In this document: one piece after another, positions 10,902 through 42,847 of the stretch
Layout of the letters: each line of letters starts with the position of its first letter
Numbering within the stretch: the first letter of the stretch is position 1
Assembly (NCBI GenBank): GCA_964342475.1
Contig: CAYFGE010000004.1
Span: forward strand, 14,796-78,795
Length of the DNA: 64,000 nucleotides
From: an uncultured Planctomycetales bacterium
Lineage (GTDB): Bacteria; Planctomycetota; UBA1135
Reading direction: 5' to 3'
The notes under the pieces: model-generated
What the model was told of the DNA's origin: nothing
Databases searched by the model: none
The model's input: the letters and a program-made list of their open reading frames with translations, nothing else
Translations under genes and position numbers: made by a program

Positions 10902-10967
10902 ATGGCACACATCCTCCTCGCCTACCTCGCCCTCCCGCTGCTGCAGACGGTCGGCGGCGAATGGGGG
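10902..10967 (+). other. detached signal-peptide-like leader (MAHILLAYLALPLLQTVGGEWG) in frame 0, ending in a G7 tract
   Basis: ATG 10902. The hydrophobic h-region is followed by the G7 run at 10963-10969. After the run this frame decays into R/S/T/P-rich sequence, while the FG-GAP body continues in the -1 frame. Confidence 0.45.
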
Positions 10968-19097: not shown

Positions 19098-19880
19098 TCA
19101 GGCGGGTTCGGCGGCGTCCTCGGCCAGCAGCTGCACGACCAGCACCAGCCCGGCCATCGCGGCGGTGGCCGCGGCCAGCGGCCACCACAGGCCGTTGCCG
19201 AGGTCGACCTGCGCGCGCGCGATCATCCGGCCCCAGCTCGGTTCGCTCTGCAGGCCGACGCCGAGGAAGCTGACCAGGACCTCGGCCTTCACCGCGTAGA
19301 CGAAGCGCAGCGAGAACTGCACCGCGAGCAGTCGGCGCAGGTTGGGCAGCAGGTGGCGCAGGAGGACGGCGCCCGCGCCGGCCCCGGCGGCGCGCGCCGC
19401 GGCGACGAACTCGAGCTCCTTGAGGCGCAGGACCTCGCCGCGCACCAGGCGGAAGACGCCGACCCAGGTGGCGAGGGCGATGGCCAGGCACACCGAGGCC
19501 AGGCCGCGGTCGAGCGCGTAGCCGACGACGAGGATGAGGAGGATGCCGGGGACGGCCGCGACCACCCCGGAGCACCACAGCAGCAGCTCGTCGAGCCAGC
19601 CGCGGAACCAGCCGGCGAGGAGGCCGAGGAGGGTGCCGGCCGCCACCGCCAGGCCGGCGGCCACCCCGCCGACGAGCAGCGCGACCCAGGTGCCCTGCAG
19701 CACGCGGGCGAGCACGTCGCGGCCGAGGTGGTCGGTGCCGAGCAGCGCGCCGCCGCCCGGCGGAAGGGCCTCGGCGCCGTCGCGCATCACGGCCCAGTCG
19801 GCACCGATCCAGCCCGCCGCGGCGGCCAGGCCGACGGCCAGGTAGAGGAGCAGCCCGAGGCGCAGCAGGCGGCGGCTCAC
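19098..19880 (-). CDS. ABC transporter permease (DppC/OppC type)
   Basis: GTG 19880 overlaps the upstream stop (GTGA). Contains HLGRDVL and an EAA-like loop (AARAAGAGAGAVLLRHLLPN). The long N-terminal extension in the ORF track is an R/P-rich artefact. Confidence 0.85.
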   Translation of the reverse strand: MSRRLLRLGLLLYLAVGLAAAAGWIGADWAVMRDGAEALPPGGGALLGTDHLGRDVLARVLQGTWVALLVGGVAAGLAVAAGTLLGLLAGWFRGWLDELLLWCSGVVAAVPGILLILVVGYALDRGLASVCLAIALATWVGVFRLVRGEVLRLKELEFVAAARAAGAGAGAVLLRHLLPNLRRLLAVQFSLRFVYAVKAEVLVSFLGVGLQSEPSWGRMIARAQVDLGNGLWWPLAAATAAMAGLVLVVQLLAEDAAEPA

Positions 19881-21136: not shown

Positions 21137-22845
21137 GGGAAGAGGTCGAAGGGGTTGACCTCGACGTTCTGCAGCCAGGGCTGCAGCAGCAGGTAGCCGC
21201 GGCGGTGGTCCACCGGGACCACCGGGAGCTCCGCGTCGAGCAGTCCGACGACCTGCGCGGCGAGGGCGTCGCGCTCGGCCGAGGGGGCCAGCGCGGCGAA
21301 GCGGTCGAGCAGGGCGTCGAGTTCGGCCGAGCGCAGGTTGGCGCGGTTCACCCCGCCGCCGGCGTTGGCGCCGTGGAAGATCTGCAGCAGGTTGGCCGCG
21401 TCCGGCCAGTCGAGCGCCCACGACCAGACGTGGAGCTGCAGCTGGCCCTGCTGCGCCCGCTGCGAGTACTCGGCGGCGGACCAGGCCTGCACGCGGCAGG
21501 GGAGGCCGGCCTCCGCCAGGCCCGCAGCGAGCAGGTCGGCGAGGTCGGCGACGGCCTGGTTGCCGGCGACGACGGACAGCTCGAGCTCGGGCAGCGGCTG
21601 CTCCACGCCCCAACCGGCCTCGGCCAGCAGGCGGCGCGCCTCGGCCGGGTCGGCGCGGCGCCAGGCCGACTCGGGCAGGCCGGCGGTCTCGCGCAGGCCC
21701 GGCGGCAGCCAGCGGCGCGCCGGCTCGGCCCACACGCCGTTGCGGATCACGCGGTGCCAGCGCTCGTAGGGGAAGCTGAGCGCGATCGCGCGCCGCAGGG
21801 CCAGGCGGCGCGCGTTGCCGGCCTCGTCGCCCGGCCGCACGCCGAGCACCGGGTCGTCGAGGTTGAGCACGAGCATGCTCAGGTCCGGCGTGTCGGTGAC
21901 CAGCAGGCGGACCCCGCGCGCGCGCAGGGCGGGCGAGGGCGCGTCGTCGACGACCAGGTTGGCGAAGCTGTCCTGGCCCGGGGACAGGCGGTCGATCTCG
22001 CCGTTCTCGAACAGCAGCGTGCGCGTCGCGCCCTCGGGCACCGACTCGAAGACCAGTTCGCGGACGTGCGGCTGGGGCCCGAACTCGTCGACGTCGCCGC
22101 GCCAGCCGGGCGTGGCGGTGAAGCGCGCGCGGGTCGGCGGCTTCCACTCGGCCAGCACGTAGGGCCCGCTGCCGACCGGGTGGTCGGTCAGGCCGCGCTC
22201 GGGATGCCGGAAGGCCTCGGGCGGAGTGACCACCAGGTAGGCCGAGGCGAGCCGCGCGAGCAGGTCGGGCGCGGGGCGCGCGAGGCGCAGGACGACGACC
22301 GCGTCGCCCTCGGCGCGCAGGCCGGGCAGGCCGCCGGCCCGGGCTTCCTCCCAGGCGGCGTCGGCCTCTTCCGCGCTCCCGCCGCAGCGGAGGCGGAAGC
22401 CGTCCAGCCCGGCGAGCAGGCCTTCGAGCACGAAGGCGTTGCCGCCGTCGGTGCGCGGGTCCGCCAGGCGCAGGAAGGAGTCGACCACGTCCGCCGCCGT
22501 CACCGGTCGCGTGCCGCCGGGCCACAGCGGCTCGGGGTGGGGGTCGTGGAAGCGGGCGTCGGGGCGCAGACGGAAGCGCCACTCGAGGCCGTCGTCCGAG
22601 ACCTCCCAGTCGGACGCCAGCAGGCCCTGGAAGGCCTCGCGCGAGCCGGGCCGGTACTCGACCAGCCCCTCGTAGACCTGACGCTGCAGCACCTGGCTGG
22701 CCGTGCTCCAGGCCTCGCGAGGGTCGAAGTCGCCGAGGGCCTGGCCGAGGGCGAAGCGCAGGCGGTCGGTGGGCGGGGCGGGGCCGGCTTCGCGGCCGCA
22801 GGCGGCCAGCAGGAGGGCCGCGGCCAGGACCGCCCGCGTCCTCAT
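21103..22845 (-). CDS. ABC transporter substrate-binding lipoprotein, family 5 (peptide/nickel type)
   Basis: ATG 22845. Lipobox MRTRAVLAAALLLAAC|G. Contains VYEGLVEY and GSGPYVLAEW. Confidence 0.85.
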   Translation of the reverse strand: MRTRAVLAAALLLAACGREAGPAPPTDRLRFALGQALGDFDPREAWSTASQVLQRQVYEGLVEYRPGSREAFQGLLASDWEVSDDGLEWRFRLRPDARFHDPHPEPLWPGGTRPVTAADVVDSFLRLADPRTDGGNAFVLEGLLAGLDGFRLRCGGSAEEADAAWEEARAGGLPGLRAEGDAVVVLRLARPAPDLLARLASAYLVVTPPEAFRHPERGLTDHPVGSGPYVLAEWKPPTRARFTATPGWRGDVDEFGPQPHVRELVFESVPEGATRTLLFENGEIDRLSPGQDSFANLVVDDAPSPALRARGVRLLVTDTPDLSMLVLNLDDPVLGVRPGDEAGNARRLALRRAIALSFPYERWHRVIRNGVWAEPARRWLPPGLRETAGLPESAWRRADPAEARRLLAEAGWGVEQPLPELELSVVAGNQAVADLADLLAAGLAEAGLPCRVQAWSAAEYSQRAQQGQLQLHVWSWALDWPDAANLLQIFHGANAGGGVNRANLRSAELDALLDRFAALAPSAERDALAAQVVGLLDAELPVVPVDHRRGYLLLQPWLQNVEVNPFDLFPCKRFVLAPAD

Positions 22846-30000: not shown

Positions 30001-31224
30001 GTGAAGCTTCCTCCGCCGGGACCGGACTCCCACTGGCTCAGGACCGCGCCCCCGCTCGGGTTGCCGGCCTGCGCCGGTGAGGTCGACTGCGACGTGCTGG
30101 TGCTCGGCGGCGGGCACGCCGGGGTCTCCACGGCCTGGTTCCTGCTCGAGGGCGGGCTCGACCCCGACCGCCTCGTCCTGCTCGAGGCGCGGGAGATCGC
30201 CGGCCGCGCCTCCGGCCGCAACGCCGGCTTCCTGCTCGCCGACCTGGCCGAGCCCTACCACCGCCTGCGCGAGGCCCTCGGCGAGAAGGCCGCGCGCCTG
30301 CGCCGGCTGAGCCTGCGCAACCAGGAGCTGCAGCGGGAACTGGGCGAGCGGCTGGGCTTCGACTGGCAGTTCCAGGCCGACGGCGTGCTCGTCGCCGCCG
30401 CCAGCGAGCACGAGGACCGCGAGTGCCGCGAGAGCGCGGACGCCCTGCGCGCCGACGGCTTCGCGGTGGACTACCTCGACGCGGCGGAGACCTCGCGACG
30501 CCTCGGCGCGGCCAATGCCTTCGGTTCGTTGTGGGATCCGGCCGGAGGCGGCAGCCAGCCGGCGGCCTACGTGCGCGGCGTGGCCGCGGCCTGCGCCCAG
30601 CGCGGCGCCCGCCTCCACGAGCACAGCCCGGCCACCTCGCTGCGCGGCGGCGAGGACGGCGGGGTCCTGGTCGAGACGCCGCACGCGCGGGTGCGCGCCG
30701 CCTGCGTGGTGCTGGCGCTGAACGCCTACGCGCCCCTGCTCGACCCCTCCCTGTCCGCCCTCGTCGCCCCCTTCCGCGGCCAGATGCTGAGCTTCCCGCC
30801 CGTGCTGCCGCGCGTCCTCGAGCCCGTGGTCTACCGCAACCACGGCTTCGAGTACTTCCGCCAGGACCGCGCCGGCCGCTTCCTCTTCGGCGGCTTCCGC
30901 CAGACCGCGATCCAGGACGAGACCGGCTACGAGGAGGCGGTCAACCCCGACGTGCAGCAGCGCCTCGAGGAGTTCGCCCGCGGCCTCTACCCGCAGCTCG
31001 AGGGGATCGAGCCCGACGCCCGCTGGGCCGGGACGATGGGCTTCTCCAGCGACGGCCTGCCCTTCGTCGGCCCGCACCCGAGCCTGTCGGGGGCGGTCCT
31101 GTGCCTCGGCTTCACCGGCCACGGCTTCGGCCTGGCGGCGGAGGCCGGGCGCATGGCGGCCTCCCTGGTCCTCGAGGGGCGCGCCGAGGACGCCGACCTG
31201 TTCAGCCCGCGCCGCGTGCTCTGA
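30001..31224 (+). CDS. FAD-dependent oxidoreductase (DAO family)
   Basis: GTG 30001 in ORF 29317..31224. Has the FAD fold DVLVLGGGHAGVSTA, plus ASGRNAGF and GFTGHGFG. Confidence 0.82.
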   Translation: MKLPPPGPDSHWLRTAPPLGLPACAGEVDCDVLVLGGGHAGVSTAWFLLEGGLDPDRLVLLEAREIAGRASGRNAGFLLADLAEPYHRLREALGEKAARLRRLSLRNQELQRELGERLGFDWQFQADGVLVAAASEHEDRECRESADALRADGFAVDYLDAAETSRRLGAANAFGSLWDPAGGGSQPAAYVRGVAAACAQRGARLHEHSPATSLRGGEDGGVLVETPHARVRAACVVLALNAYAPLLDPSLSALVAPFRGQMLSFPPVLPRVLEPVVYRNHGFEYFRQDRAGRFLFGGFRQTAIQDETGYEEAVNPDVQQRLEEFARGLYPQLEGIEPDARWAGTMGFSSDGLPFVGPHPSLSGAVLCLGFTGHGFGLAAEAGRMAASLVLEGRAEDADLFSPRRVL

Positions 31225-31247
31225 GGCCGCGGCGCCGCGGCGACCGC

Positions 31248-32402
31248 TCAGCGCGCGCCGGCCGCGGCCTCCTCGATCACGCCGCGGAAGCGGCGGAAGA
31301 GGTGGGCGGCGTCGTGCGGCCCGGGCGCGGCCTCGGGGTGGTACTGAACGGAGAACACCGGCAGCTCGGCGTGGCGCATGCCCTCGACGCTCTGGTCGTT
31401 GCCGTTGCGGTGGGTGACGACCAGGCCGGTCCCCTCGAGCGAGGCCGGATCGACCGCGTAGCTGTGGTTCTGGCTGGTGATGTCGATGCGCCCGGTGTCG
31501 AGCTCGATGACCGGGTGGTTCGCGCCGTGGTGGCCGAACTTCATCTTCTCGGTGCGCCCGCCGAAGACGTGAGCCAGGATCTGGTGGCCGAGGCAGATGC
31601 CGAGCATCGGCAGCCCGGTCTCGGCGACGGCGCGCAGGTTGCTGTGCGCGTACCCGACGGCGGCCGGGTCGCCCGGGCCGTTGGACAGGAACACGCCGGC
31701 GGGGGAGTGCGACAGGATCTCCTCGGCGGTGGCCGCGGCCGGCAGTACGCGCGGGGCGAAGCCGGCGCTGACCAGGCAGCGCAGGATGTTCCGCTTCACG
31801 CCGAAGTCGAGCACCACGAGCGGCAGCGCCGGGGCGGGCGTGTCCTCGAGGCCGGGGGAGAGGAACTCGGCGGGCAGCGCCTCGTCCCAGTCGTAGGCGG
31901 CCGCGCAACTGACCTCGCGCGCGAGGTCGCGGCCCTCGGTCGAGGGGTGGGCGCGCACCTTCTCGAGCAGCGCGGCGACGTCGTCGCGCTCGGTGCTGAT
32001 CACCGCGCGCAGCGCGCCCTGCTCGCGCAGGCGCAGCGTGATGTCGCGCGTGTCCACGCCCTCGATGGCGGGGACGCCGTGCTGCCGCAGGTAGTCGGGC
32101 AGCGCCATCGTGCTGCGCCAGTTCGACGGGCGCAGCGACATCTCGCGCACGATCAGCGCCTCGGCCCAGCAGCGCCCGGACTCGTCGTCCTCCGGCACGG
32201 TGCCCGAGTTGCCGATCTGCGGGTAGGTCATGACCACGCCCTGTCCGCGGTAGCTCGGGTCGGTCAGGATCTCCTGGTACCCGGACATCGCGGTGTTGAA
32301 GACCAGCTCGCAGCAGCGCTCGCCGGGAGCGCCGGTCGAGCGGCCGGGATGGACGGAGCCGTCTTCCAGGACGAGGATGGCGGGGGTGTCCGTGGCGGTC
32401 AT
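31248..32402 (-). CDS. carA: carbamoyl-phosphate synthase small (glutaminase) subunit
   Basis: Motifs: GELVFNTAMSGYQEILTDPSY-type N-terminus, GICLGHQ (catalytic Cys), QYHPEA. Confidence 0.95.
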   Translation of the reverse strand: MTATDTPAILVLEDGSVHPGRSTGAPGERCCELVFNTAMSGYQEILTDPSYRGQGVVMTYPQIGNSGTVPEDDESGRCWAEALIVREMSLRPSNWRSTMALPDYLRQHGVPAIEGVDTRDITLRLREQGALRAVISTERDDVAALLEKVRAHPSTEGRDLAREVSCAAAYDWDEALPAEFLSPGLEDTPAPALPLVVLDFGVKRNILRCLVSAGFAPRVLPAAATAEEILSHSPAGVFLSNGPGDPAAVGYAHSNLRAVAETGLPMLGICLGHQILAHVFGGRTEKMKFGHHGANHPVIELDTGRIDITSQNHSYAVDPASLEGTGLVVTHRNGNDQSVEGMRHAELPVFSVQYHPEAAPGPHDAAHLFRRFRGVIEEAAAGAR

Positions 32403-32410
32403 CGGCGGCC

Positions 32411-32416
32411 ATTCTC
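32411..32416 (-). promoter_or_regulatory. -10-like GAGAAT, 8 nt upstream of the carA ATG
   Basis: On the minus strand the sequence is GAGAATggccgccgATG. Confidence 0.3.
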
Positions 32417-32445
32417 GGCCCGCCGCGGCCCCGCGGCCAGCGGAA

Positions 32446-33534
32446 TCAGCCCGACGCCGCCTCGCGTGCCTCGTACCAGCGCAGCCAGTCCGCCTCGGCC
32501 GGTCCGGGATCCGCGCCGGTGAGGCGCTGCAGCGCGCTCATCGCGCTGCGGCTGACGAAGGTGGACACCAGCCGGACTTCGAGCACCACCCCCTCGGTGA
32601 GCACGCTGGTGCGCGGGTCGGCGATGGCGGCGCGCCCGGCGACCTCGACGTCGAAGTCGGTGACCAGGCTGATCTGGCGGCCGAAGAAGGCGTAGCGGCC
32701 GGGAGCGCGCTGCGAGGAGGCGACCGCCAGCATGAGCGCGTCCACCGCCTCGGGCCGGCCGGAGCGCCCCAGGTTCTCGGCCGCCCGCGCGCGCTCCTCA
32801 CGCGCCGAACCGCGCAGCAGGGCCAGGGTCCAGCTGCCGACCGCGCCCTCGGGGTCGAGCTCGACCATCGCCGCGCAGGCGGCGGCGAGGGCCGGCGCGT
32901 CGGCCTCGACCAGGCTGCGCTCGCTCAGGGGGCGGAACAGGTCCGGCTCGTACTGATGGGCCCCCACGCGCGCGGCCGCGCGGCGCAGGGCGGCGTCGCG
33001 GCCGCGCAGGGCGCGCCGCAGGTCGACCAGGCCGACGCGGCGGTCGGACGGGGCGTTCCCGGCCGGGATCTCGGCGAGCAGGCGGCCGGTGCGCAGCGCG
33101 GCCTCGGCGGGGGCGGCCCCGGCCAGCGAGTCCCACAGCCACTCCACCCGGTCCTCGGCGCGGGCCCGCGGCGGCACCGGGTCGAGGCGGCGGCCCCAGT
33201 CCTCGAGGGCGCCGAGGAGCAGCGCGCGGTCGTCCGCCGGCAGCTCCGGGTCGGCCCCCGCGGCGACCAGGGCGCCGACCAGGCCCCGCGCGGAGGCCCG
33301 CTCCACCCAGGCGCCGAAGTCCGCCTCGCGCACCATGGCCAGGCGCGCGGCCTCGGCGGCGGGGTCGACCACCTCGACCACCGGGTCGGCGGTGACGGCC
33401 AGGCGGCCCCAGGGGGTGTCCACCAGGAAGTCGCCGGGCGCCGTGCGCTCGACGCAGGGCGCGCGGTCGCCGGACCGCAGCACCGCCACCGGGTGCTGGG
33501 GGGCGAGGAGCAGCGGAAGGAGCAGGAGGACCAT
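32446..33534 (-). CDS. secreted hypothetical protein with a HEAT-like segment
   Basis: Signal-like MVLLLLPLLLAPQ. Contains AAENLGRSGRPEAVDALMLAV (HEAT/PBS-lyase-like). Starts 45 nt downstream of the 914-aa paralogue. Confidence 0.65.
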   Translation of the reverse strand: MVLLLLPLLLAPQHPVAVLRSGDRAPCVERTAPGDFLVDTPWGRLAVTADPVVEVVDPAAEAARLAMVREADFGAWVERASARGLVGALVAAGADPELPADDRALLLGALEDWGRRLDPVPPRARAEDRVEWLWDSLAGAAPAEAALRTGRLLAEIPAGNAPSDRRVGLVDLRRALRGRDAALRRAAARVGAHQYEPDLFRPLSERSLVEADAPALAAACAAMVELDPEGAVGSWTLALLRGSAREERARAAENLGRSGRPEAVDALMLAVASSQRAPGRYAFFGRQISLVTDFDVEVAGRAAIADPRTSVLTEGVVLEVRLVSTFVSRSAMSALQRLTGADPGPAEADWLRWYEAREAASG

Positions 33535-33579
33535 GCCCGGACTAGGGTAGCCCGGGAGCCCGGTTCCGGCATTTTCCGC

Positions 33580-36324
33580 CTAGGGTCCCGGCGGCGTCAG
33601 CGCACGCATGAGCGGCAGCGCCCGGCCCGCCCCGCGGTAGAGCATGGCGAAGGCCTTGGCGTAGGAGCTCTGCGCGGGCATGTTCTCCCAGGCGTCCAGC
33701 AGGGTGTCGTGCAGCACGGCGTCGTGCTCCAGGCTCTCGCTGTAGGCCAGGCCGAGGACGAGCAGGCCGGTCATGCCGCGGAAGGCCTCCGTCGTCCCGT
33801 AGGCCTTGTAGCGGAAGGCGTGGGCGTCCCAGTCGTACTGGGTGGCCGCCCAGGTGCGGGCGAGGTCGTGGAGGTAGGCGCGCGGCGCGGCGGCGGCGGT
33901 GCGGCGGTCCCACAGGGTCAGCCCCTCGAGGACCACGCCGGCGTGGATGCTCGACACGTAACGGTCGATCGCGGTGCCGGTGATCGTGTCGACGCAGTCC
34001 TGGGCCGCGTTCAGCGCGGCGGCGGTCACCGCCTCCTCGCCGGCCATGTGCTCGGTCAGGTCGATCACCGTCATCAGGTTGACCAGCGGCCAGCCGACGG
34101 TGCGCATGTAGAGCAGCTCGGAACTGCCGTCGCGCAGCAGCACGATGCTGTCGACCGACTCGGGCACGACCTCCTCGGCATGGTGCCGGCCGAAGCTCAG
34201 CACGGTCTCCCGCAGGCGCGGGTCGCCGCTCAGGCAGTGGGCGAGGGCGACGCCCTGGATCAGCGAGTGCCCGCCCTCGTGGCGCATCGTCGAGATCGGG
34301 GAGTCGTCGACGTGGAAGGAGGGGAACTCGGCCCAGCTGCCGCCGTGCAGGGCGAAGAAGTCGGCGAAGTCGGCGTCCACGTCGGTGAAGCCGTAGGCCT
34401 GCAGCTCGGGCACCGTGGCGAAGAAGGCGGCGAAGTCGCGCAGGGTGTCCGTCGGCCAGCTGGCCGGCATGGTGTCGCCGAAGCGGTTCACCTCGTTGAT
34501 GCCGAGCACCTCGAACATCAGCTCGATCTCGGCCGGCTCGGACATGCCGCGCCGCTGCTCCGGCGCCATCCACTCCTGCACCTTGTTGACGAAGCCGGGC
34601 AGGTAGAGGGTGGCCAGCCAGTCGAAGGCGTTGTCGAGCGTGCCGTCGTACTGCGGCCAGGCCTCCCACTCGCCGCGGAAGTGCGCGGCCACGATGCGCG
34701 CGATGTGGGTGGTGACGCGGTGCTGGGTGGCGCGGTGCTGGGAGCAGCCGCCGTACCAGCTGATGTCCACGTCGGCGTAGTGCCACGCCGTCTCGAGCCC
34801 CGGCTGCAGGTAGTCGACGTCCCCGGTGCGCAGGAACTGCTGCAGGAGCACCCAGGCCGGGTCGTACTCCTGGTTCTGCGCGCCCCAGTAGGCCACGCCG
34901 TTCTCGCGGTCGAAGAAGTCGCCGAAGTGCTGCAGGCCGAAGTTCCACTGCGGCGCCAGCTCGTTGCGCGCGAGCAGCAGGTCGGTGGACTGCGCCAGCT
35001 TCTCCTCGAGGTAGGCGTGGTCGCCCGGCAGCGACTCGCCGAGCGGGCCGAAGGCCTCGGCGGCGCAGTACCAGGCGGCGTCGGCGTGCGGCAGCAGGGG
35101 CGCGGCGAGCGCGGCGGCCTCGGCGGCCGGGTCGGTCTCGTCGGCCTCGTGGCCGACGCGGATCCACAACTCCTGGGTGCGGCCGAAGCCCGGGTCGAGC
35201 GGCTGGCCGCGGCCGTCCACCTCGGGGCAGAAGTCGAACACCAGGGTGTCGGCCGCCCGCGCCAGGGTCGAGGGGAACAGCTGCCAGAAGTGCTTCGAGG
35301 CGACCAGGGTTCCGTCCACCCGGGCGGCGCCGGGGTAGCGGCCGGCCTCGTCGACGCCGTCGCGGCGCAGGGTGTCGTGGCCGACCTGGCTGCGGTCGAA
35401 GGCGCCGGCCACCGTCTCGACGCTGCCGTCGGGGTCGACCAGTTCGGTGGTCGTTCCCGGGGTGGCGACCGGCAGCTGCAGGCGCCAGCTGGTGATCTCG
35501 TGGCGGCCGCGCTGCAGGTCGAGGCTCTGCGACACGTGCACCGCCGAGTGTCCCCGCCACACCGAGACGCGGGTGGTCAGGCGGGCGGCGGTGGTGCCGC
35601 CGGCGTCGGCCAGGTCGTCGTGGCGGACGAGGTGGACGGCAAGCTCGGTCTGCTCCTCGACGAAGAGCTCCCCGCCGGGGAGCGGGGTCAGCGGGCCGGC
35701 TGCGGTGTCGACCACGAAGACCGCCGGAGCGTCGAGGCCGCCGCCGGTCAGCCCCTCGAGCTCGAACAGCTCGCCGGGCCGCGAGCTGGAGCGCAGCTCG
35801 AGGTGGTCGGTGCGCACCGTGAGCGGTGTCGAGGCGCCGGCCGGGATCGTGTCCAGGCCGCCGGCCAGGCTGAGGCCGCCGCCGCGCGGGCGCAGCACGC
35901 CGCTGACGCTGCCGCCGGCGGCGATGGCAGGGGCCAGGGCCTCGACCGAGAGCCAGCGCACGCTGCCGTCCTTGTGGCGCGACAGCACCCGGCTGGTGGC
36001 CGGGAGGCGCTCTCCGCCGTCCAGGCTCCACTCCAGGTCGAGCGCGCTCTCCAGCTCGCCGCTGGCGAAGGGGATGCCGAAGCGGACCGGCGCGGAGGCC
36101 TGGTCGTGGCCGCTGCGCTCCTCGGCCGCGAGCGGCACCTCGAAGTCGACGCCGCCGCCCTGCTGCTGGCCGGAGCCGCCGCCGCCCTCGTCGGCGCTGC
36201 CTCCGCCGCCGCAGGCGGTCAGGAGGATCAGGAGGATCCAGCCGGCGCGCGCGGCGCGGGTGAACCGGTCGCGGCCTCCGGGGACCGCGGCGGGATGGAA
36301 TCGGGTCGGGATGGGGTCCTGCAC
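33580..36324 (-). CDS. 914-aa lipoprotein, paralogue 1 of a tandem pair (beta-rich N-terminal half, helical C-terminal half; function unknown)
   Basis: GTG 36324 with GGGAGG 9 nt upstream. Lipobox ILLILLTAC|GGG. The composition is balanced, unlike the R/G/A-rich antisense ORF. Collinear with 36407..39058. Confidence 0.8.
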   Translation of the reverse strand: MQDPIPTRFHPAAVPGGRDRFTRAARAGWILLILLTACGGGGSADEGGGGSGQQQGGGVDFEVPLAAEERSGHDQASAPVRFGIPFASGELESALDLEWSLDGGERLPATSRVLSRHKDGSVRWLSVEALAPAIAAGGSVSGVLRPRGGGLSLAGGLDTIPAGASTPLTVRTDHLELRSSSRPGELFELEGLTGGGLDAPAVFVVDTAAGPLTPLPGGELFVEEQTELAVHLVRHDDLADAGGTTAARLTTRVSVWRGHSAVHVSQSLDLQRGRHEITSWRLQLPVATPGTTTELVDPDGSVETVAGAFDRSQVGHDTLRRDGVDEAGRYPGAARVDGTLVASKHFWQLFPSTLARAADTLVFDFCPEVDGRGQPLDPGFGRTQELWIRVGHEADETDPAAEAAALAAPLLPHADAAWYCAAEAFGPLGESLPGDHAYLEEKLAQSTDLLLARNELAPQWNFGLQHFGDFFDRENGVAYWGAQNQEYDPAWVLLQQFLRTGDVDYLQPGLETAWHYADVDISWYGGCSQHRATQHRVTTHIARIVAAHFRGEWEAWPQYDGTLDNAFDWLATLYLPGFVNKVQEWMAPEQRRGMSEPAEIELMFEVLGINEVNRFGDTMPASWPTDTLRDFAAFFATVPELQAYGFTDVDADFADFFALHGGSWAEFPSFHVDDSPISTMRHEGGHSLIQGVALAHCLSGDPRLRETVLSFGRHHAEEVVPESVDSIVLLRDGSSELLYMRTVGWPLVNLMTVIDLTEHMAGEEAVTAAALNAAQDCVDTITGTAIDRYVSSIHAGVVLEGLTLWDRRTAAAAPRAYLHDLARTWAATQYDWDAHAFRYKAYGTTEAFRGMTGLLVLGLAYSESLEHDAVLHDTLLDAWENMPAQSSYAKAFAMLYRGAGRALPLMRALTPPGP

Positions 36325-36351
36325 CTCGGTCGCCTCCCTCTCTTATCGGCC

Positions 36352-36389
36352 GGCGGCCGGGGATCCTGAGGTCAGGATCCCCGGCCGCC
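36352..36389 (-). terminator. perfect palindrome/hairpin between the two paralogues (18-nt arms, 2-nt centre)
   Basis: GGCGGCCGGGGATCCTGA-gg-TCAGGATCCCCGGCCGCC. There is no U-tract, so it could be a terminator, a processing site or a stabiliser. Confidence 0.4.
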
Positions 36390-36406
36390 TCGGAAGCGTC
36401 AGCGGC

Positions 36407-39058
36407 TCAGGGCCGGACCGCGCGCAGCTCGCGCATCAGGGCGAGGGTGCGCGGGGCGCCGCGGTAGAGCATGCCGAATGCCTTGGCGTAGCCGGTCTTC
36501 TGCGGCAGGTGCGCCCAGGCGTCCTGGATCACGGCCCACAGGTCGGCGTCGTGCTCGAGGCTCTCGGCGTAGGCCAGGCCGTAGAGGACCAGGCCCGACA
36601 TGCCGGCGTAGGCCTCGGTGGCGCCGTGCGCGCGGTAGCGGAAGGCGTGCTCGTTCCAGTCGTACTGCTGGGTGGCCCACTGGCGCGCGAGGTCGCGCAG
36701 GTGGAGCTGGACGTCCCCGCGGCCGGTGCGCTGGTGGTAGCGCGCGAGGCCCTCGAGTTGCAGGCCGGCGTGGATCGAGGAGCGGATGCGGTCGACCGGC
36801 GTGGCCAGCAGCACGTCGGCGCACTGGTCCATCGCGGCGAGCATGTCGGCGCGCAGGGCCTGCTCGGCGGGCATGCCGCAGCTCAGGTCGGCCAGGGTGT
36901 CGAGGTTGACCAGCGGCCAGCCCAGGTTGCGGGTGTAGAGGGGCTCGTCGGTGCGGTCGCGCTGCTCCTCGATGGTGCGCAGGGCGAGCGGGACCACCTC
37001 GTCGACCTGGTGGCGGCCGAAGGCCAGGGCGCGCTCGCGCAGCCGCGCCTCGCCGGTCAGCAGGTGGGCCAGGGCCACGCTCTGGACCACGGAGTGGCCG
37101 GCCTGGTGGCGCTGGTCCGGGATCGGCGCGGTGTCGACGTGGAAGGAAGGCATGGCCTGCCACGAGCCGCCGTAGCGGGCGAAGAAGCCGGCGAAGTCGG
37201 CGTCGGCGTCGTCGAAGCCGCGGCTGCTGGCTTCGGGCAGGCTGGCGATCTGCCGCGCGTAGGCCTCGAGCGTGTCGGCGCTCTGGCCGCTCGCGGCGAG
37301 GTCCAGGCCGATGCGCTCGACCAGGTGGAAGCCGATCATGTCGAACATCCGGCCGAGCAGGTCCTGCTCGGGCAGGCCGCGGCGCCGCTCGGCGTCCAGC
37401 CAGCCCTCGAGGGTGGCGGAGGCGCCGCGGCCGTACTGCCCGGCGACCCAGTCCAGCGCGTTGGCCAGGCTGCCGTCGTGGTTCGGCGAGGCCGCCCACT
37501 CGGCGCGGAAGTCTGCGCCGAGGATGCCGCCGATCCAGGCGTCCACGTGGTGCTTGGTGGAGCGGTGCTGGAAGACGCCGCCTTGGGGCGTGCTGTCCAC
37601 GTCGGCGAGGTGCCAGACCTGGTCCAGCGCCGGGTCGAGGTAGTCGACGTCGCCGGTGCGCAGGAACTGCTGCAGGAGCACCACCGCGGGGTCGTACTCG
37701 AGCTGCAGGGCGCCGGAGTAGGCCAGGCTGTGCTCGCCGTCGAAGAAGTCGCCGAAGTGCTGGATGCCGTGGTGCAAGCTGCTCGAGCGGCTGCGGCGGC
37801 CGAGCACCTCGTCGGTGGACTGGGCCAGCATCTCCTCGAGGTCGGCGTGGTCGCCCGCCTCGGCCAGGCCGAGCTGCCCGAAGGCGCCGGCGGCGACGTA
37901 CCACTGCGGCGTGCAGTGGGGGCGCGCCGGCTGCTCGAGGCGCGCGGCGAGGGCGTGGAGGGCGGCGGCGCGCGGCGGCGCGGCGTCGATCCACAGCTTG
38001 ACCGTGCGGCCGAAGCCGTCCTCGACCACCTCGGCGGCGTCCACCGTGCCGGGGCAGAAGTCGAGCACGAGGGAGTCGCCCTGCCGCGCGGCGCGGGTGG
38101 GCATCAGCTCGGCGAAGTGGCGCAGGCCCACGGTCAGGTTGGCGGTGGCGATCACGCCGGGGAAGTCCCCGGCCTGCTCGCGCCCCTGGAAATCGAAGAC
38201 GCCCACCGCGGTCTGCCAGATCGCGGCGTCGCCGCGGCGGCGCGCGATGCGGCCGTCGGGCAGCGGGGCGTGCGTGCGCAGGCCGGGGCGTTCGACCGGC
38301 AGCTCGAGGCGCCACGAGCGCAGGGAGTGGACGCCGCGGGTGACGTCCAGGCTCTGCTGCAGGCGGATCCGGCCGGAGCCGCGGTGCAGGGTCACGCGGG
38401 TGGTGAGGGTGGCGCAGGGGACCCCGTCCCCGGCCGCCAGGGTCTCCTCCCGGCGCAGGGTGACGGCGAGCTCCGACTGCTGCTCGACCTCCATCCAGGC
38501 TGCTCCGACCGGCTGCAGCACGCCGTCGGCGGTCTCGACCACGGCGCGCGCGGGCGCCGACAGCAGGCCGGCGTCGCCGCTGATCAGCTCGAAGAGCTCG
38601 TGGGCGCCGGTGGCCTCGGTCAGGGCGAGGAAGCCGGTGTCCACGCGGGCGGCGGTCATCGGCGCGTGGGCGACGTCGAGGATCCCCTCGGCCGTCTCCC
38701 CGCGGTCGCGGGCGACCAGGGCGGCCTCGAAGCGCTCTCCGGCGGCCAGGGCCGGCGCGGTGAACCCGACGCGCAACCAGCGCACCGAGCCGTCCTCCCA
38801 CCGCGACAGGACCTGGCCGTCGGCGAGCAGCGTCCCGGTCGGCGTGTCGAGCGCCAGCTCCGGGACGGAGGCCAGCATCCCCTCCGGGAAGGGGACGCCG
38901 AGGACCACCGGCCAGGCCGGCTGGTCCAGGCCCGTGCGCTCCTCCAGGACGACCGGCACCTCGAAGGGCGGCGGTTCCTGGGCGGCGGCGGGGGAGGCGG
39001 CCGCCGCGAGGGCGAGGGCCGCGAGGGAGGGGAGCAGAGGGGTGGTGGGCATCGACAT
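36407..39058 (-). CDS. ~884-aa secreted protein, paralogue 2 of the tandem pair
   Basis: ATG 39058 (or 39052). Signal peptide MSMPTTPLLPSLAALALAAAASPAAAQ. Shares blocks with paralogue 1: DGSVRWL, QHFGDFFD, LLQQFLRTGDVDYL, PSFHVD, GWPLVNL, YAKAFGMLYRGA. Confidence 0.8.
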   Translation of the reverse strand: MSMPTTPLLPSLAALALAAAASPAAAQEPPPFEVPVVLEERTGLDQPAWPVVLGVPFPEGMLASVPELALDTPTGTLLADGQVLSRWEDGSVRWLRVGFTAPALAAGERFEAALVARDRGETAEGILDVAHAPMTAARVDTGFLALTEATGAHELFELISGDAGLLSAPARAVVETADGVLQPVGAAWMEVEQQSELAVTLRREETLAAGDGVPCATLTTRVTLHRGSGRIRLQQSLDVTRGVHSLRSWRLELPVERPGLRTHAPLPDGRIARRRGDAAIWQTAVGVFDFQGREQAGDFPGVIATANLTVGLRHFAELMPTRAARQGDSLVLDFCPGTVDAAEVVEDGFGRTVKLWIDAAPPRAAALHALAARLEQPARPHCTPQWYVAAGAFGQLGLAEAGDHADLEEMLAQSTDEVLGRRSRSSSLHHGIQHFGDFFDGEHSLAYSGALQLEYDPAVVLLQQFLRTGDVDYLDPALDQVWHLADVDSTPQGGVFQHRSTKHHVDAWIGGILGADFRAEWAASPNHDGSLANALDWVAGQYGRGASATLEGWLDAERRRGLPEQDLLGRMFDMIGFHLVERIGLDLAASGQSADTLEAYARQIASLPEASSRGFDDADADFAGFFARYGGSWQAMPSFHVDTAPIPDQRHQAGHSVVQSVALAHLLTGEARLRERALAFGRHQVDEVVPLALRTIEEQRDRTDEPLYTRNLGWPLVNLDTLADLSCGMPAEQALRADMLAAMDQCADVLLATPVDRIRSSIHAGLQLEGLARYHQRTGRGDVQLHLRDLARQWATQQYDWNEHAFRYRAHGATEAYAGMSGLVLYGLAYAESLEHDADLWAVIQDAWAHLPQKTGYAKAFGMLYRGAPRTLALMRELRAVRP

Positions 39059-39138
39059 GAGGGGTGACGAGCCCTGTGCGGCTGCTCCGGCGCGCACTTG
39101 AGGAGTTTTTCGGCTGCGCGGAGTCGCCGGGCGTCCGG

Positions 39139-39176
39139 AAAAAGGCGCGAGCCCGGCCGTCGGGGCCGGGCTCGCG
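39139..39176 (-). terminator. intrinsic terminator of the FG-GAP gene
   Basis: A 13-bp perfect stem (CGCGAGCCCGGCC/GGCCGGGCTCGCG) with a 5-nt loop, followed on the minus-strand RNA by CC-UUUUU. Confidence 0.8.
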
Positions 39177-39196
39177 GAAGGGAAGTCCAGGGAGGA

Positions 39197-41155
39197 CTAG
39201 GGCTGGATGGTCGTCGGACCGTAGTAGCCCAGGCGTTGGTCGCCGCCGAACCAGGAGACGGTGGACAGCAGGACCGTGCGGTTGGCCAGCGGGGCGCCGT
39301 TGATCGAGGCCGGCACCAGCCAGGTGTAGGAGGCGGAGCCGAAGGCGTCCGGGTTGCTGAAGCCGATCGCGTGGTAGGGAGCGCTCAGGCCGGTGTTCAC
39401 GCTGCCGAGGTACATCGCGTTGCCCTGGCTGAGGCCCATGAAGTAGTAGACCACGGCGGAGGTGCTGCGGTGACCGTAGGTGGTCTGCAGGGTGCTGGAC
39501 CAGTTGACGCGCAGCGCCGAGGAGAGCTCGAGCTCGATCGGGCGGTCCTGGATCACGCCGCCGTCGATGGAGCTGACGCGCTCGAAGGGACCGCGCGCCT
39601 CGACGGCCTGGAAGTAGACCCGGTCGCCGGCGGCGAGGGTGATCGGCAGGTCGAAGTCGGAGCTGTGCGAGCCGCCGGTGAGGCCGTTGACGAGCTCGAA
39701 GTAGTCGTTGCCGCCGATGCCGCCGATCAGGCCGCTGATGCCGATGGTGTAGCCCTCGGCGGTGGTCGTGCTGCCCAGCGAGGTGCCGACGTAGAGGTAG
39801 ACGTCCGCGTTCTCCTTGACGTTGGTCACGTCGAAGGTGACGAGGCTGTCGAGCACCGGGGTGTTGGTCAGGTTCAGCTCGAGCGGGCCGATGTTGCTGT
39901 CCGGCGGGGTCCAGACCTGGTAGTGGCCCTGGCGGCGGCCGAGGCCGGCGTCGGCGTCGGGAGCGCCGAAGGCCAGGTCGCTGATCGTGGTCTGGTTGAC
40001 GTCACCGGTCTCGGTGATCGTCGCGCCCATGCGGCTGCCGGCGGTGCCGTCCACCGAGAGCAGCACCTGCGGCGCGGCGCCCTCGAGGAAGTCGATGACG
40101 TAGCCGCGGCCGGCGCCGTTCTCGCGCGGCGCGCCGACGGCGATCTCGACCAGGTTGTCGTAGTCGCGGTCCGGAAGCAGCTGGATCTCGTAGCCGAACT
40201 GGCTGGCGACCGAGGCGCCGTTGAGCGTCTTGACCAGCGCGCCGGAGGCGCCGTTCCAGATGTAGGCCGAGCCGTTGGTCGTGCCGGGCGCGCCGGCGGC
40301 GATGTAGCCGCCGCCCGGGGCGAGGATGGCGCTGACCGAGAAGCCGGCCTTGGCGCCGGCCACCGACGGGTAGAGGTGGCGCAGCGTGGCGAGGTCGCTG
40401 AGCGCGGTGACCGAGCCGGACTCGGTGCCGCCGTCGTTGGCGAAGGGCGCGCCGACGACGATCTCGTCGCCCGCCGACCCGGCCAGGTTGCCGAGGTTCT
40501 CGGAGGAGAAGCCGAACCACTCGCGCGAGCCGGGGGTGCCGGCGATGGGCGAGCCGGCCAGCTCGACCAGGGCGCCGGAGTTCCACTCGTAGACGTGCAG
40601 CGCGCCGTCCGCGCCGTTCTCACCGACGGCGCCCACGGCCAGCTCGACCGCGCCGTCCCCGTCCACGTCGGTCGCGGCCACCGAGGCCCCGAAGAGGATG
40701 CCGTTGCCCTGCCCGTCGATGAAGTCGAGCACGCTGCCGTCGGAGCCGCTGATCACGTAGGCCCGGCCGGCGAAGAAGCCGTTCAGGTCCGAGTAGAAGG
40801 GGGCCGAGGCGGCGAAGTCCGGGATGCCGTCGCCGTTCAGGTCGCCCAGGGAGGCGACGGAGGCGCCGAAGAGGCTGCCGGCCTTGTCGCCCGGGACGGT
40901 GCGGATCAGGCTGCCGTCGTGGCCGTTCAGGATGTGGACCGCGCCCGAGTTGAGGCCGTTGGCGTCCTCGGCGAGGGCGCCCACGAGGAGGTCGGGGAGG
41001 CCGTCACCGTTCACATCGCCCAGCTGGGCCATGGAGTAACCGAAGGAGGAGCCGCGCTCGGCGCCGTCCTGCTCGTAGAGAGACAGCCACTGGGCCTGGA
41101 GCGGCGACGTCAGGGCGACCGCAAGACCAGCAAGGGTAAGGAGGTACGTACGCAT
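39197..41155 (-). CDS. FG-GAP (integrin-alpha-type) repeat protein with two C-terminal beta modules
   Basis: ATG 41155 gives the signal peptide MRTYLLTLAGLAVALTSPLQAQ; GTG 41176 is the alternative start. Repeats: GDVNGDGLPDLLVGA, GDLNGDGIPDF, TDVDGDGAVELAVGA. Confidence 0.85.
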   Translation of the reverse strand: MRTYLLTLAGLAVALTSPLQAQWLSLYEQDGAERGSSFGYSMAQLGDVNGDGLPDLLVGALAEDANGLNSGAVHILNGHDGSLIRTVPGDKAGSLFGASVASLGDLNGDGIPDFAASAPFYSDLNGFFAGRAYVISGSDGSVLDFIDGQGNGILFGASVAATDVDGDGAVELAVGAVGENGADGALHVYEWNSGALVELAGSPIAGTPGSREWFGFSSENLGNLAGSAGDEIVVGAPFANDGGTESGSVTALSDLATLRHLYPSVAGAKAGFSVSAILAPGGGYIAAGAPGTTNGSAYIWNGASGALVKTLNGASVASQFGYEIQLLPDRDYDNLVEIAVGAPRENGAGRGYVIDFLEGAAPQVLLSVDGTAGSRMGATITETGDVNQTTISDLAFGAPDADAGLGRRQGHYQVWTPPDSNIGPLELNLTNTPVLDSLVTFDVTNVKENADVYLYVGTSLGSTTTAEGYTIGISGLIGGIGGNDYFELVNGLTGGSHSSDFDLPITLAAGDRVYFQAVEARGPFERVSSIDGGVIQDRPIELELSSALRVNWSSTLQTTYGHRSTSAVVYYFMGLSQGNAMYLGSVNTGLSAPYHAIGFSNPDAFGSASYTWLVPASINGAPLANRTVLLSTVSWFGGDQRLGYYGPTTIQP

Positions 41156-41200
41156 TTCTGGGTGGTGCTTCGGCACGGAGGGGACGGGAGTGCCACCAGA

Positions 41201-41206
41201 ATCCTA
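41201..41206 (-). promoter_or_regulatory. -10 box TAGGAT for the FG-GAP gene
   Basis: On the minus strand, GGGTAGGAT lies 45 nt upstream of ATG 41155. Confidence 0.4.
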
Positions 41207-41233
41207 CCCGATGATCCTCGCGGCAGGATGCCG

Positions 41234-41239
41234 TAATCT
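41234..41239 (+). promoter_or_regulatory. -10-like TAATCT, 9 nt upstream of ATG 41249
   Basis: The sequence is CCGTAATCTtggggaccgATG. Confidence 0.35.
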
Positions 41240-41248
41240 TGGGGACCG

Positions 41249-42847
41249 ATGAGCGGCTCCATCCGACGCGTTCTCGCCCTCCTCGCCCTGTCCTGGGGCC
41301 TTTCCGCGGCATCCTGCGGCGGCGCCGAGGAGCCTCCCGCCCCGGCTCCGCAGCCCGCTCCGGCCGAGGCCGCCGACCCCTCCGCGGAGGGGGCCGGCGC
41401 TCCCCAGGATCCGGGCCCGGTGCTCGGCCCGCGCGAGGCCGACATGTCCGAGCTGCGCGTCACCTGCTTGAGGGACGAGGACGGCCAGCCGGTGGCCGGG
41501 CTGCGGGTCCGGCTGCTGTGGAAGTCGGGCGAGCAGGACACCGACGTCGGCCGCGCCTACCAGATGACGGGCCTCGACGGCGTGGCCCGCTTCCAGGTGC
41601 TCGGTGGGACGATCATCCAGTCCGTGGCGGCCGAGCCGAGCGCGCTCACCGCGCCCGAGGCCCTGGTGATCAAGAAGCCGATCCTCCCGGCCACCGAGGT
41701 CGAGCTCGAGCTGCGCGTGAAGCCCGCCGGCACCCTGGCCGGAGTGGTGTTGAACGCCGCCGGCGAGCCGGTGGTCGGCGCCGAGGTGGTGGTCTGGTTC
41801 GACGAGCGCTGGAACGTCGAGGGGCCGGAGGAGAAGGTCTTCGACGTGAAGAGCGCCAGTTACGAGCTCGGCTCCTTCACGGTCGGCGGCCTGCCGCAGG
41901 GCGCCTTCACCGTCGAGGCGCGCAAGGAGGGGATGATCGCCACCCGCCGCGCCACGGGGCGCATCCGCACCGGCCAGGTCCTCGACGGCTTCGAGCTGGT
42001 GCTCGAGGAGGCCCAGCCCTACTACGGCCGCGTCGTCGACGAGGACGGCGAGCCGATCGCCGGCGCGGGGCTGGTCGTCGGCATGGTCGGCCGCCACGCG
42101 AGGTTCGAGGAGAGCTTCACCGACCAGGCCATCTACGTGCCGGCCGCCCAGGTCCACCTGGTGAGCGACGCCGACGGCGTCTTCGAGGTCGCGGCGCGCC
42201 CGCCCAGCCAGATGTGGGTGGCCGAGGCCAAGCGCCAGGGCTACCAGGACACGCGCAAGCGCATCCTGCCCGGCGAGGGCGCCGGCGACGTGGTGATGCC
42301 CTCGGGCTTCACCCTGTTCGGCCAGGTGCTCGACCCGGACCGCCGGCCGGTCGGCCGCGCCCTGCTGCGCCTGCGCGGCGAGCAGCAGAAGCAGTTCCGC
42401 ACCGGCGAGGGTGGCGGCTACCGCGCCGAGGGGCTGCGCGAGGACCTCGAGGCCGCCCTGCTGGTCTACAAGCCGGGCTTCGCGCCGACCCTGGTCTGGC
42501 CGGTCGAGGTCGGTCCGGACGCCGAGGCGCTGCCGGTGCTGCTGCGTCCCGGGATGATGGTCAGCGGCCGCGTGATCGGCCCGGACGGCGAGGGCCTCCC
42601 CGGCGCGCGCGTCCAGATCGTCGAGGAGCTGCCGAGCTCCGAGTTCGCCAGCCTGCCCTTCCCCGGCGGCCCGCTGCGCGCCGAGTTCGGCATCGACCAG
42701 GCCCTGACGGCCAGCGACGGCCGCTTCGTGCTGACCGACCTCCCGCCCGGTGAGCTGCGCCTGCGCGTGTTCGGGCCGGACGGCGCCGAGCGGCCCGAGG
42801 TGCTCACAGAGCCCGGCACCGACGAGCTCGAGATCCGCATCGACTGA
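41249..42847 (+). CDS. lipoprotein with carboxypeptidase-regulatory-like (CarboxypepD_reg) repeats
   Basis: Lipobox LSWGLSAASC|GG. Repeated G.V.d..G.P..GA.V units (LAGVVLNAAGEPVVGAEV, YGRVVDEDGEPIAGAGL, VSGRVIGPDGEGLPGARV). Confidence 0.75.
   Translation: MSGSIRRVLALLALSWGLSAASCGGAEEPPAPAPQPAPAEAADPSAEGAGAPQDPGPVLGPREADMSELRVTCLRDEDGQPVAGLRVRLLWKSGEQDTDVGRAYQMTGLDGVARFQVLGGTIIQSVAAEPSALTAPEALVIKKPILPATEVELELRVKPAGTLAGVVLNAAGEPVVGAEVVVWFDERWNVEGPEEKVFDVKSASYELGSFTVGGLPQGAFTVEARKEGMIATRRATGRIRTGQVLDGFELVLEEAQPYYGRVVDEDGEPIAGAGLVVGMVGRHARFEESFTDQAIYVPAAQVHLVSDADGVFEVAARPPSQMWVAEAKRQGYQDTRKRILPGEGAGDVVMPSGFTLFGQVLDPDRRPVGRALLRLRGEQQKQFRTGEGGGYRAEGLREDLEAALLVYKPGFAPTLVWPVEVGPDAEALPVLLRPGMMVSGRVIGPDGEGLPGARVQIVEELPSSEFASLPFPGGPLRAEFGIDQALTASDGRFVLTDLPPGELRLRVFGPDGAERPEVLTEPGTDELEIRID

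Follow-up and report, generated by a model that had tools for sequence, protein, structure and literature searches.

What is the function of two adjacent genes that encode large exported proteins in an uncultured planctomycete? The pair lies in a 64,000-nucleotide stretch of DNA from a Planctomycetales bacterium (GenBank assembly GCA_964342475.1, contig CAYFGE010000004.1, positions 14,796 to 78,795; hereafter the window, with positions counted from its first letter), and we refer to the genes as A and B. Profile comparisons place their products in a rare, unnamed family that is sister to PcRGLX, the exo-rhamnogalacturonan lyase of Penicillium chrysogenum from polysaccharide lyase family 26 (PL26). 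We assign a probability of roughly 45% to the reading that A and B are exported glycan-processing enzymes (depolymerases, either lyases or hydrolases) of a new PcRGLX-like family, whose substrate would be an acidic polysaccharide outside the cell or in its envelope, most probably of the bacterium's own making. This reading is based on the fold, the export signals, a set of invariant ionisable residues, and the presence of related genes in polysaccharide-biosynthesis operons.

Two coding genes

33580..36324, minus strand: gene A, a 914-residue lipoprotein paralogue; open reading frame (ORF) with a third-codon-position G+C content (GC3) of 0.98 and the Shine-Dalgarno sequence GGGAGG at 36333-36338
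36407..39058, minus strand: gene B, an 883-residue exported soluble paralogue; ORF with GC3 0.98, 47% identical to A

A preliminary description of the window, made from the sequence alone, had proposed two adjacent minus-strand genes here and had named the long antisense ORFs as the competing possibility. The composition of the codon positions supports A and B. The G+C content at positions 1, 2 and 3 is 0.73, 0.50 and 0.98 in A and 0.77, 0.50 and 0.98 in B, the normal pattern for genes in a 74% G+C genome (the window itself has about 74%). The antisense ORFs (32293..36369 and 35372..39067) and ORFs in other frames have a first-position value of 0.87-0.98 and are shadow ORFs of high G+C. Gene A starts with the GTG at 36324, with the GGGAGG sequence 8 nt upstream. 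Gene B encodes 883 residues, close to the 884 estimated earlier, from the ATG at 39058, a start that is also called in near-identical metagenome-assembled genomes (MAGs; P0007); an alternative GTG at 39097 would give 896 residues and add an Arg to the n-region. Orthologues of B are P0007, P0008, L002_B, L005_B and L008_B. In a BLASTP alignment the two proteins are collinear end to end; 863 residues align, of which 47% are identical and 60% score as positives (700 bits), and all of the shared sequence blocks listed in the preliminary description are visible.

A PcRGLX-like fold

35920..36147, minus strand: residues 60-135 of A, RIFT beta-barrel with the motif G.PF..G....DGSVRW; Pfam PF19501 matches at residues 75-126, the model has strands within 63-131, and the region aligns with PcRGLX residues 21-128
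35155..35919, minus strand: residues 136-390 of A, central beta-sandwich that ends in the GFGRT.E strand; all beta in the model, with a predicted local distance difference test score (pLDDT) above 90
33583..35154, minus strand: residues 391-914 of A, alpha/alpha toroid; helices at 392-909 in the model

An AlphaFold model of A from an alignment of 37 sequences had a pLDDT of 92.4 and a predicted template modelling score (pTM) of 0.91, compared with a pLDDT of 72 from an alignment of 10 sequences. The model is built of beta strands from residue 63 to 390 and of helices from 392 to 909, just as the preliminary description had anticipated in calling the N-terminal halves beta-rich and the C-terminal halves helical. 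Between A and B, the RIFT barrel is 51% and the beta-sandwich 41% identical; within the toroid the values are 56% for its first part, 41% for residues 561-660 and 54% for its last part.

The same description had proposed a resemblance to PcRGLX/YetA-like proteins, and this resemblance was borne out by four independent tests, namely Pfam, profile searches of the Protein Data Bank (PDB), hhalign and Foldseek. When the model of A was compared with the PDB by Foldseek, the 13 best matches were all chains of PcRGLX (5XQO/5XQ3), aligned over the whole length with E=2.4e-21 to 6e-19, TM scores of 0.44-0.53 and sequence identities of 13-15%. PcRGLX was the only whole-length match; the next ones (GH38, LacZ and a mutarotase) covered the beta-sandwich part only, with E>=1.5e-5, and the first model, with a pLDDT of 72, gave the same outcome. 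The structure and profile searches, which had been suggested as a way to refute the assignment, returned no whole-length match to a different fold.

At the sequence level the relationship is distant. A phmmer search with A alone against all PDB sequences gave no PcRGLX match at E<=10, and the PcRGLX-like proteins P0053 and P0157, used as single queries, gave no PDB match. A profile of 10 relatives found PcRGLX at E=3e-7, and a profile of 37 sequences found it at E=1.2e-16 over PcRGLX residues 21-393 and 431-605. Comparison by hhalign with a PL26 alignment assembled in this analysis gave a probability of 97.6% and E=2.7e-12 over A residues 282-540. By hmmsearch and hhalign the homology therefore reaches past the RIFT domain into the sandwich and the toroid, where residues 391-540 of A align with PcRGLX in hhalign; residues 541-914 have no counterpart in PcRGLX or PL26 that could be detected with the HMMER profile or hhalign. 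The Pfam model PF19501 (PcRGLX_1st) scores 27.3 bits with A and 20.4 bits with B, the latter just under the gathering cut-off of 22.1, and it matches 36 of the 37 family members (best E=1.3e-10). Neither PcRGLX_2nd (PF21345) nor PcRGLX_3rd (PF21346) gives a match with A or B at E<=1, and PcRGLX_3rd is touched weakly by 7 of the 37. NCBIfam likewise gave no match to A or B and has no model for the family. Taken with the predicted structure, these comparisons support a resemblance to PcRGLX at the level of superfamily and fold only.

Loss of the PL26 tyrosine loop

35188..35232, minus strand: residues 365-379 of A (FCPEVDGRGQPLDPG), a short loop; PL26 has about 31 extra residues here, including the ITYED tyrosine

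For comparison with PL26, residues 21-903 of PcRGLX were rebuilt from HMMER alignments; a search of the protein collection had returned only fragments of the full-length enzyme. Apart from one residue, a Tyr changed to Phe in DALEITYEDWEPGF (ITYED), the substrate-complex entry 5XQO has the sequence of the wild-type entries (e.g. 5XQ3). This tyrosine is kept in 7 of 7 PL26 fragments that span the motif (P0161, P0162, P0164, P0167, P0170, P0177 and P0180), and we infer that it is needed for PL26 catalysis. In the hhalign comparison the 31-residue segment that carries it falls entirely in a gap of the A/B family, and in an alternative HMMER alignment Phe365 of A stands opposite the tyrosine. The Tyr-to-Phe mutant of PcRGLX in fact scores above the wild type against the family profile (63.2 versus 62.1 bits). 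The deletion is specific to the A/B family, since other bacterial PcRGLX-like proteins retain a long Tyr-rich loop at this place. With the tyrosine missing, PcRGLX cannot serve as a template for the chemistry of A and B.

PL26 is tightly knit and contains one characterised enzyme; its similarity network is unbroken even at E=1e-179, and members as little as 32% identical still have E-values of 0 (PMC10461819). A and B have the three-domain architecture of this family, but clear sequence similarity is lacking and only profiles detect the link; judged in this way, they lie far outside PL26. The preliminary description had spoken of polysaccharide-lyase-type proteins, which is correct for fold and superfamily and fails for membership of PL26, given the deleted tyrosine loop, the lack of pairwise similarity and the lack of a pectin context. 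Lyase activity of A and B is at this point hypothetical, and pectin is an unlikely substrate. We know of no enzyme of the larger PcRGLX-like superfamily that has been characterised outside PL26.

The family and its invariant residues

A word-indexed search of 5.8 billion proteins yielded 8 close relatives, or 12 with an alignment as query, and the family was instead mapped by an exhaustive HMMER scan of 1.84 billion cluster representatives. This profile scan gave 3767 matches at E<=1e-3 and 101 at E<=1e-30, which fall into three groups: about 20 full-length relatives, about 25-30 proteins that share the C-terminal half (the sister clade), and a large remainder that matches in the N-terminal half only. 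The last group consists of ordinary PcRGLX_1st/2nd/3rd proteins, and PcRGLX-like proteins in Planctomycetota and Verrucomicrobiota number thousands. Members of the sister clade match the family profile at E=1e-113 to 1e-93, have the C-terminal motifs in common with it, and are 24-29% identical to A. The full-length family was found in a few Planctomycetota MAGs, with 2-4 copies per genome.

The 37 sequences are 24-63% identical to A, and their alignment has 17 invariant columns (G463, G468, Y479, G481, E486, Y487, G525, H530, R531, G661, G662, P668, H682, H686, R741, W745 and K890); D488, Q529, H671, H794, E800, W825, R897 and R901 are nearly invariant. His, Arg, Lys, Glu, Tyr and Trp dominate the invariant columns, and A and B retain every residue of both sets. 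The family-specific invariant motifs of the toroid in A are FGDFFD (467-472), QEYDP (485-489), QHR (529-531), YGGSW..FPSFHVD (660-673), RH.GGHS (681-687), GWPL.NL (744-750), SIHAG (791-796) and YAK..AMLYR (888-897). In the secondary structure of the model the invariant residues sit in loops between toroid helices. Some family members have weak Pfam matches to the toroids of GH127, GH88 and PcRGLX_3rd.

An old duplication into a predicted lipoprotein and a soluble protein

36211..36324, minus strand: signal peptide of A, read from the sequence, which ends in the lipobox L-T-A-C (Cys38)
36148-36210, minus strand: Gly/Ser-rich tether of A, residues 39-59, directly after Cys38
38981..39058, minus strand: signal peptide of B, MSMPTTPLLPSLAALALAAAASPAAA followed by Q, read from the sequence; signal peptidase I (SPase I) type, no Cys

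The lipobox of A, RFTRAARAGWILLILL-TAC/GGGG (the slash marks the cut), fits the pattern [LVI][ASTVI][GAS]C, and lipidation is predicted from it. This signal, already recognised in the preliminary description, is kept together with the Gly/Ser linker in 6/6 A-clade orthologues and is found in 0/6 B-clade proteins. All six of the latter have an A-x-A/Q site and no Cys. The signal type assigned earlier to B is thus upheld and the cut site shifts by one residue, from after AAAQ to, more likely, AAA/QEPP, because the A-x-A/Q site is present in all B orthologues.

In a neighbour-joining tree A and B each fall in a clade of their own, next to a third clade, and the single-copy orthologues L013, L017 and P0014 lie outside. 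These orthologues occupy the same syntenic position, in which the single family gene is followed by the 362-residue gene and then by carA. Tree and position together show that the A/B duplication took place before at least four MAG species diverged, so that the tandem pair is old. As the preliminary description had proposed to check, other genomes were searched, and the B-A order and the downstream 362-residue gene are conserved in relatives. Lipoproteins are common among other family members. The single-copy orthologues are lipoproteins, and B therefore probably lost its lipid anchor. The split into an anchored and a soluble protein, interpreted earlier as sub-functionalisation, was kept in every orthologue pair examined and fits that interpretation. 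If so, the pair would be a clean example of sub-functionalisation by localisation. Both genes are under purifying selection and have been maintained: comparison with a 98%-identical MAG gives a ratio of nonsynonymous to synonymous substitution rates (dN/dS) of 0.066 for A and, for the part of B that is available, of 0.115. The dN/dS of A versus B (1.06) was discarded as meaningless, because third positions are only G or C and are saturated.

At two other loci (L017:4774-7863 and L084:6624-9753) genes for an S41 peptidase, TsaD and an AIRC-domain protein lie directly upstream of a family gene. The first belongs to a single-copy genome, and the second has the third-clade copy P0009 followed by a further paralogue. 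The arrangement at both loci suggests an ancestral array that was split later.

34809..34852, minus strand: 44-nt stretch of A, near-identical to 37639-37682 in B; encodes VLLQQFLRTGDVDYL

The single-base difference reported between these stretches was confirmed, and the encoded 15-residue peptide, VLLQQFLRTGDVDYL, is identical in A and B. Residues that are identical in the two proteins use the same codon in 73.6% of cases, and independent codon choice predicts 70.4%. Gene conversion was considered as the origin of the stretch and is not needed, because 5.6% of simulations reach an equally good window; conservation of the peptide and codon bias suffice.

Sister-clade genes in polysaccharide-biosynthesis clusters

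Five of the eight distinct genomic contexts of the sister clade are polysaccharide-biosynthesis clusters; A, B and the other Planctomycetota paralogues do not lie inside such a cluster. P0023 (L091) is located between two GT4 glycosyltransferase (GT) genes, one of which overlaps the gene start, and genes for FemAB-like acyltransferases, in a cluster with deacetylase, epimerase, Bac_transf, Wzx, DegT and AsnB genes; L098 is a similar locus. P0028 (L092) adjoins genes for a CapK-like ligase, AsnB, a GT1 enzyme, a NusG paralogue and Bac_transf, and P0024 (L094) follows WecG, epimerase and GT4 genes. P0025 (L095) is flanked by two TMEM260-like GT-C genes, with GH26 and AsnB genes present, and L103 has Wzz, acyltransferase, Wzx and GT4 genes. 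Among the remaining contexts, P0027 (L096) comes after a sugar ABC transporter, L102 has genes for an FG-GAP/ASPIC protein, a GH43-like protein and a GDSL esterase, and the context of P0022 is uninformative. An exosortase/PEP-CTERM identity of the clusters was rejected, all specific NCBIfam models being below cut-off.

Three of the clusters (L091, L092 and L095) encode AsnB-type glutamine amidotransferases, and two (L091 and L103) encode FemAB-like acyltransferases (PF13480). Their recurrence hints that the polymers may contain uronic acids in amidated or aminoacylated form.

Proposed function and alternatives

To our knowledge the fold of A and B is used almost only by glycan-active enzymes. 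In the reading that we favour, the lipid anchor would tether A to a membrane, whereas B would move freely in the periplasm or the medium, and each would bind the polymer in a cleft that separates the beta-sandwich from the toroid face. The residues matched in PcRGLX, namely Arg382 (GFGRT), Asp469 (FGDF), Tyr479, Glu486 and His530, may form a common sugar-binding core. Catalysis would be performed by family-specific residues of the toroid loops (Tyr487, Arg531, His671, His682, His686, Arg741, His794, Glu800 and Lys890), which would replace the beta-sandwich tyrosine loop used by PL26. The basic, His and Tyr residues, together with the AsnB amidotransferases of the clusters, hint at uronic acids and at lyase-like or epimerase-like chemistry.

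A more ambitious version of this proposal is tentative, and we would expect it to fail more often than to hold. A, B and some 50 related clusters would then form a new family of carbohydrate-active enzymes (lyases, hydrolases or polymer-modifying enzymes) that lost the tyrosine loop, rebuilt the active site from His-rich toroid loops, became dedicated to the producer's own exopolysaccharide and, in this Planctomycetota lineage, was split into a tethered and a free enzyme. If it were true, the PcRGLX scaffold would have been re-used with a different catalytic apparatus, and His530, Tyr487, Glu486, His682, His686, Arg741 and Lys890 provide a concrete set of residues for testing. The occurrence of sister-clade genes in Wzx/Wzy-type clusters points to a missing processing step for uncharacterised bacterial exopolysaccharides and suggests where to seek the substrate. 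Should A and B prove to be ordinary glycanases, little more than a new CAZy family would be gained.

Several points weigh against the glycan-processing proposal. The window has no glycan genes, and all Planctomycetota paralogues lie among housekeeping genes, with no glycan genes in the same operon. The context comes from 8 loci in a clade that is 24-29% identical to A and may not transfer to A and B. The only catalytic residue that can be deduced for the sole characterised relative is absent, and the clustering of the invariant residues in one pocket is deduced from their loop positions in a predicted model.

The main rival, which we consider unlikely but still the strongest of the alternatives, makes A and B nutritional enzymes that depolymerise foreign polysaccharides, such as acidic glycans from algae or other environmental sources; as in other Planctomycetota that degrade polysaccharides, A would be displayed at the cell surface and B would be released. 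It draws on the same fold and homology evidence, and several observations would suit it: the sister-clade member behind a sugar ABC transporter also follows oxidoreductase and isomerase genes, GH3 and GH10-CBM4_9 genes are found near two Planctomycetota paralogues, a MAG can have 2-4 paralogues, and PcRGLX-like proteins abound in Planctomycetota and Verrucomicrobiota. However, neither A and B nor their orthologues have sulfatases, transporters, regulators or any context resembling a polysaccharide utilisation locus (PUL) beside them, their place between housekeeping genes is conserved, and the informative contexts are mostly biosynthetic rather than catabolic.

Lyases and C5-epimerases have a common first catalytic step, and the polymer could be modified rather than cleaved, for example by uronate C5-epimerisation or another proton abstraction at the His/Tyr/Arg-rich toroid site. 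The abundance of His, Tyr, Arg and Lys in the invariant set, the weak matches of a few relatives to the C-terminal toroid of D-glucuronyl C5-epimerase, and the AsnB-type amidotransferases and epimerases encoded in the biosynthesis clusters are all compatible with such a role. We nevertheless consider it improbable, since the epimerase matches are marginal (1/37 members, at E=0.009) and the sole characterised homologue is a lyase. We give just as little credence to the view that A and B are non-catalytic glycan-binding or envelope scaffold proteins whose ancestral active site was lost. The deleted tyrosine loop and the neighbouring exported repeat proteins (FG-GAP, HEAT-like and CarboxypepD_reg) would agree with it, but the 17 invariant, mostly ionisable residues kept across divergent members and both paralogues, with strong purifying selection, exceed what binding proteins usually keep. 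That A and B are genuine PL26 exo-rhamnogalacturonan lyases (EC 4.2.2.24) for pectin degradation is barely credible: PcRGLX is their best and sole whole-length match in structure and profile searches, but phmmer does not find it, identity is 13-15%, PL26 is a tight family, the models PcRGLX_2nd and PcRGLX_3rd do not match, the tyrosine loop is missing, and no pectin-utilisation genes are nearby.

Spacers and neighbouring genes

39146..39176, minus strand: intrinsic-terminator-like hairpin and T run between the FG-GAP gene and B; 13-bp GC stem, then CCTTTTTCC
36352..36389, minus strand: perfect 18-bp inverted repeat (GGCGGCCGGGGATCCTGA / TCAGGATCCCCGGCCGCC) in the B-A spacer; GC hairpin without a U tract
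32446..33534, minus strand: downstream exported HEAT-like gene, 362 residues; follows the family gene in every syntenic relative

The hairpin and T run at 39146-39176, the sole terminator-like site within 31000-41600, ends the transcript of the upstream FG-GAP gene, and B therefore starts a new one. A scan for sigma-70 promoters found nothing. The inverted repeat in the 82-nt spacer between B and A folds to about -52 kcal/mol and could determine the ratio of B to A expression. In L002 and L005 this spacer has GC-rich hairpins of unrelated sequence, and in L001 it has a weak one.

Relatives have the same gene order (ApbE, porin, SRAP, CarboxypepD_reg, FG-GAP, B, A, HEAT-like, carA), which reflects lineage synteny and is a poor guide to function. 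Because carA follows the 362-residue gene everywhere, linkage of A to the HEAT-like gene is inseparable from this synteny, and the same is true for coupling of A with the upstream FG-GAP gene. In single-copy relatives the HEAT-like protein is conserved at 46-48%, versus 31-38% for the enzyme gene. An extra 374-residue paralogue lies between A and the HEAT-like gene in L002 (L002:12802-13926) and L003 (L003:13941-15029), and there is none in the window.

Housekeeping genes of the window include hemB, hemN, acyl-CoA dehydrogenase genes, MeaB, carA, nadA, a deoC-like gene and peptidase genes; its exported repeat proteins are of the FG-GAP, CarboxypepD_reg and HEAT-like types. FG-GAP genes occur at 39197-41176 and 10961-12508, and FG-GAP proteins adjoin family members in three unrelated contexts (the window, L094:73-2487 and L102:5912-9307), with only generic repeat similarity in pairwise comparison. 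Between 18300 and 22800 no ORF passes the GC3 filter, and the AT skew is +0.16 to +0.22. The minus-strand ORF 19877-22582 in this region is probably an over-extended real gene, as its C-terminal part resembles an oligopeptide-type ABC permease.

Comparison with known systems

The closest characterised system is PcRGLX (5XQ3, 5XQG, 5XQJ and 5XQO), which has the same order of RIFT, beta-sandwich and toroid domains and collinear homology with residues 75-540 of A. Motifs in common are G.P...G....DGS.+W, G[IF][AG]RT.E (the sandwich strand that A has in common with PL26), [YF]GDF, Y..G....E..P, FLRTG and a conserved His (His530 of A). Apart from the low identity and the ITYED segment, the two differ in that residues 541-914 of A have their own His-rich motifs and the toroid part of A is about 80 residues longer. 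Unlike PcRGLX, A and B are bacterial, have lipoprotein or SPase I export signals, and have no pectin context.

Bacterial PcRGLX/YetA-like proteins (PF19501 + PF21345 + PF21346; Planctomycetota, Verrucomicrobiota and others) have the N-terminal half in common with A and B (profile positions of about 35-500, E down to 1e-44), and also the '[GE][IL]CP' strand. They match PcRGLX_2nd and PcRGLX_3rd, whereas A and B do not; they keep the Tyr-rich loop before G.SRT (e.g. RLYYYL...GVSRTHEL) and lack the C-terminal motif set of the A/B family. The toroids of GH127, GH88 and D-glucuronyl C5-epimerase, to which some family members have sub-threshold Pfam matches, occur in a different domain order, and their catalytic residues are absent from the A/B family. 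The Cys-rich Zn site of GH127 has no equivalent in A or B; Cys777, the one Cys that is invariant among the close relatives, is not conserved beyond them.

A functional parallel is provided by AlgL (PL5), BcsZ (GH8) and PslG (GH39), glycanases encoded in exopolysaccharide biosynthesis operons. They have no sequence relationship to A and B and are single-domain proteins, and A and B themselves lie outside such a cluster. They are, however, exported, some have an alpha/alpha toroid, and their genes stand among GT, Wzx and Wzz genes, the position that sister-clade members hold. By analogy with these enzymes, the likeliest role of A and B would be in the trimming, release or remodelling of an extracellular polysaccharide of acidic character.

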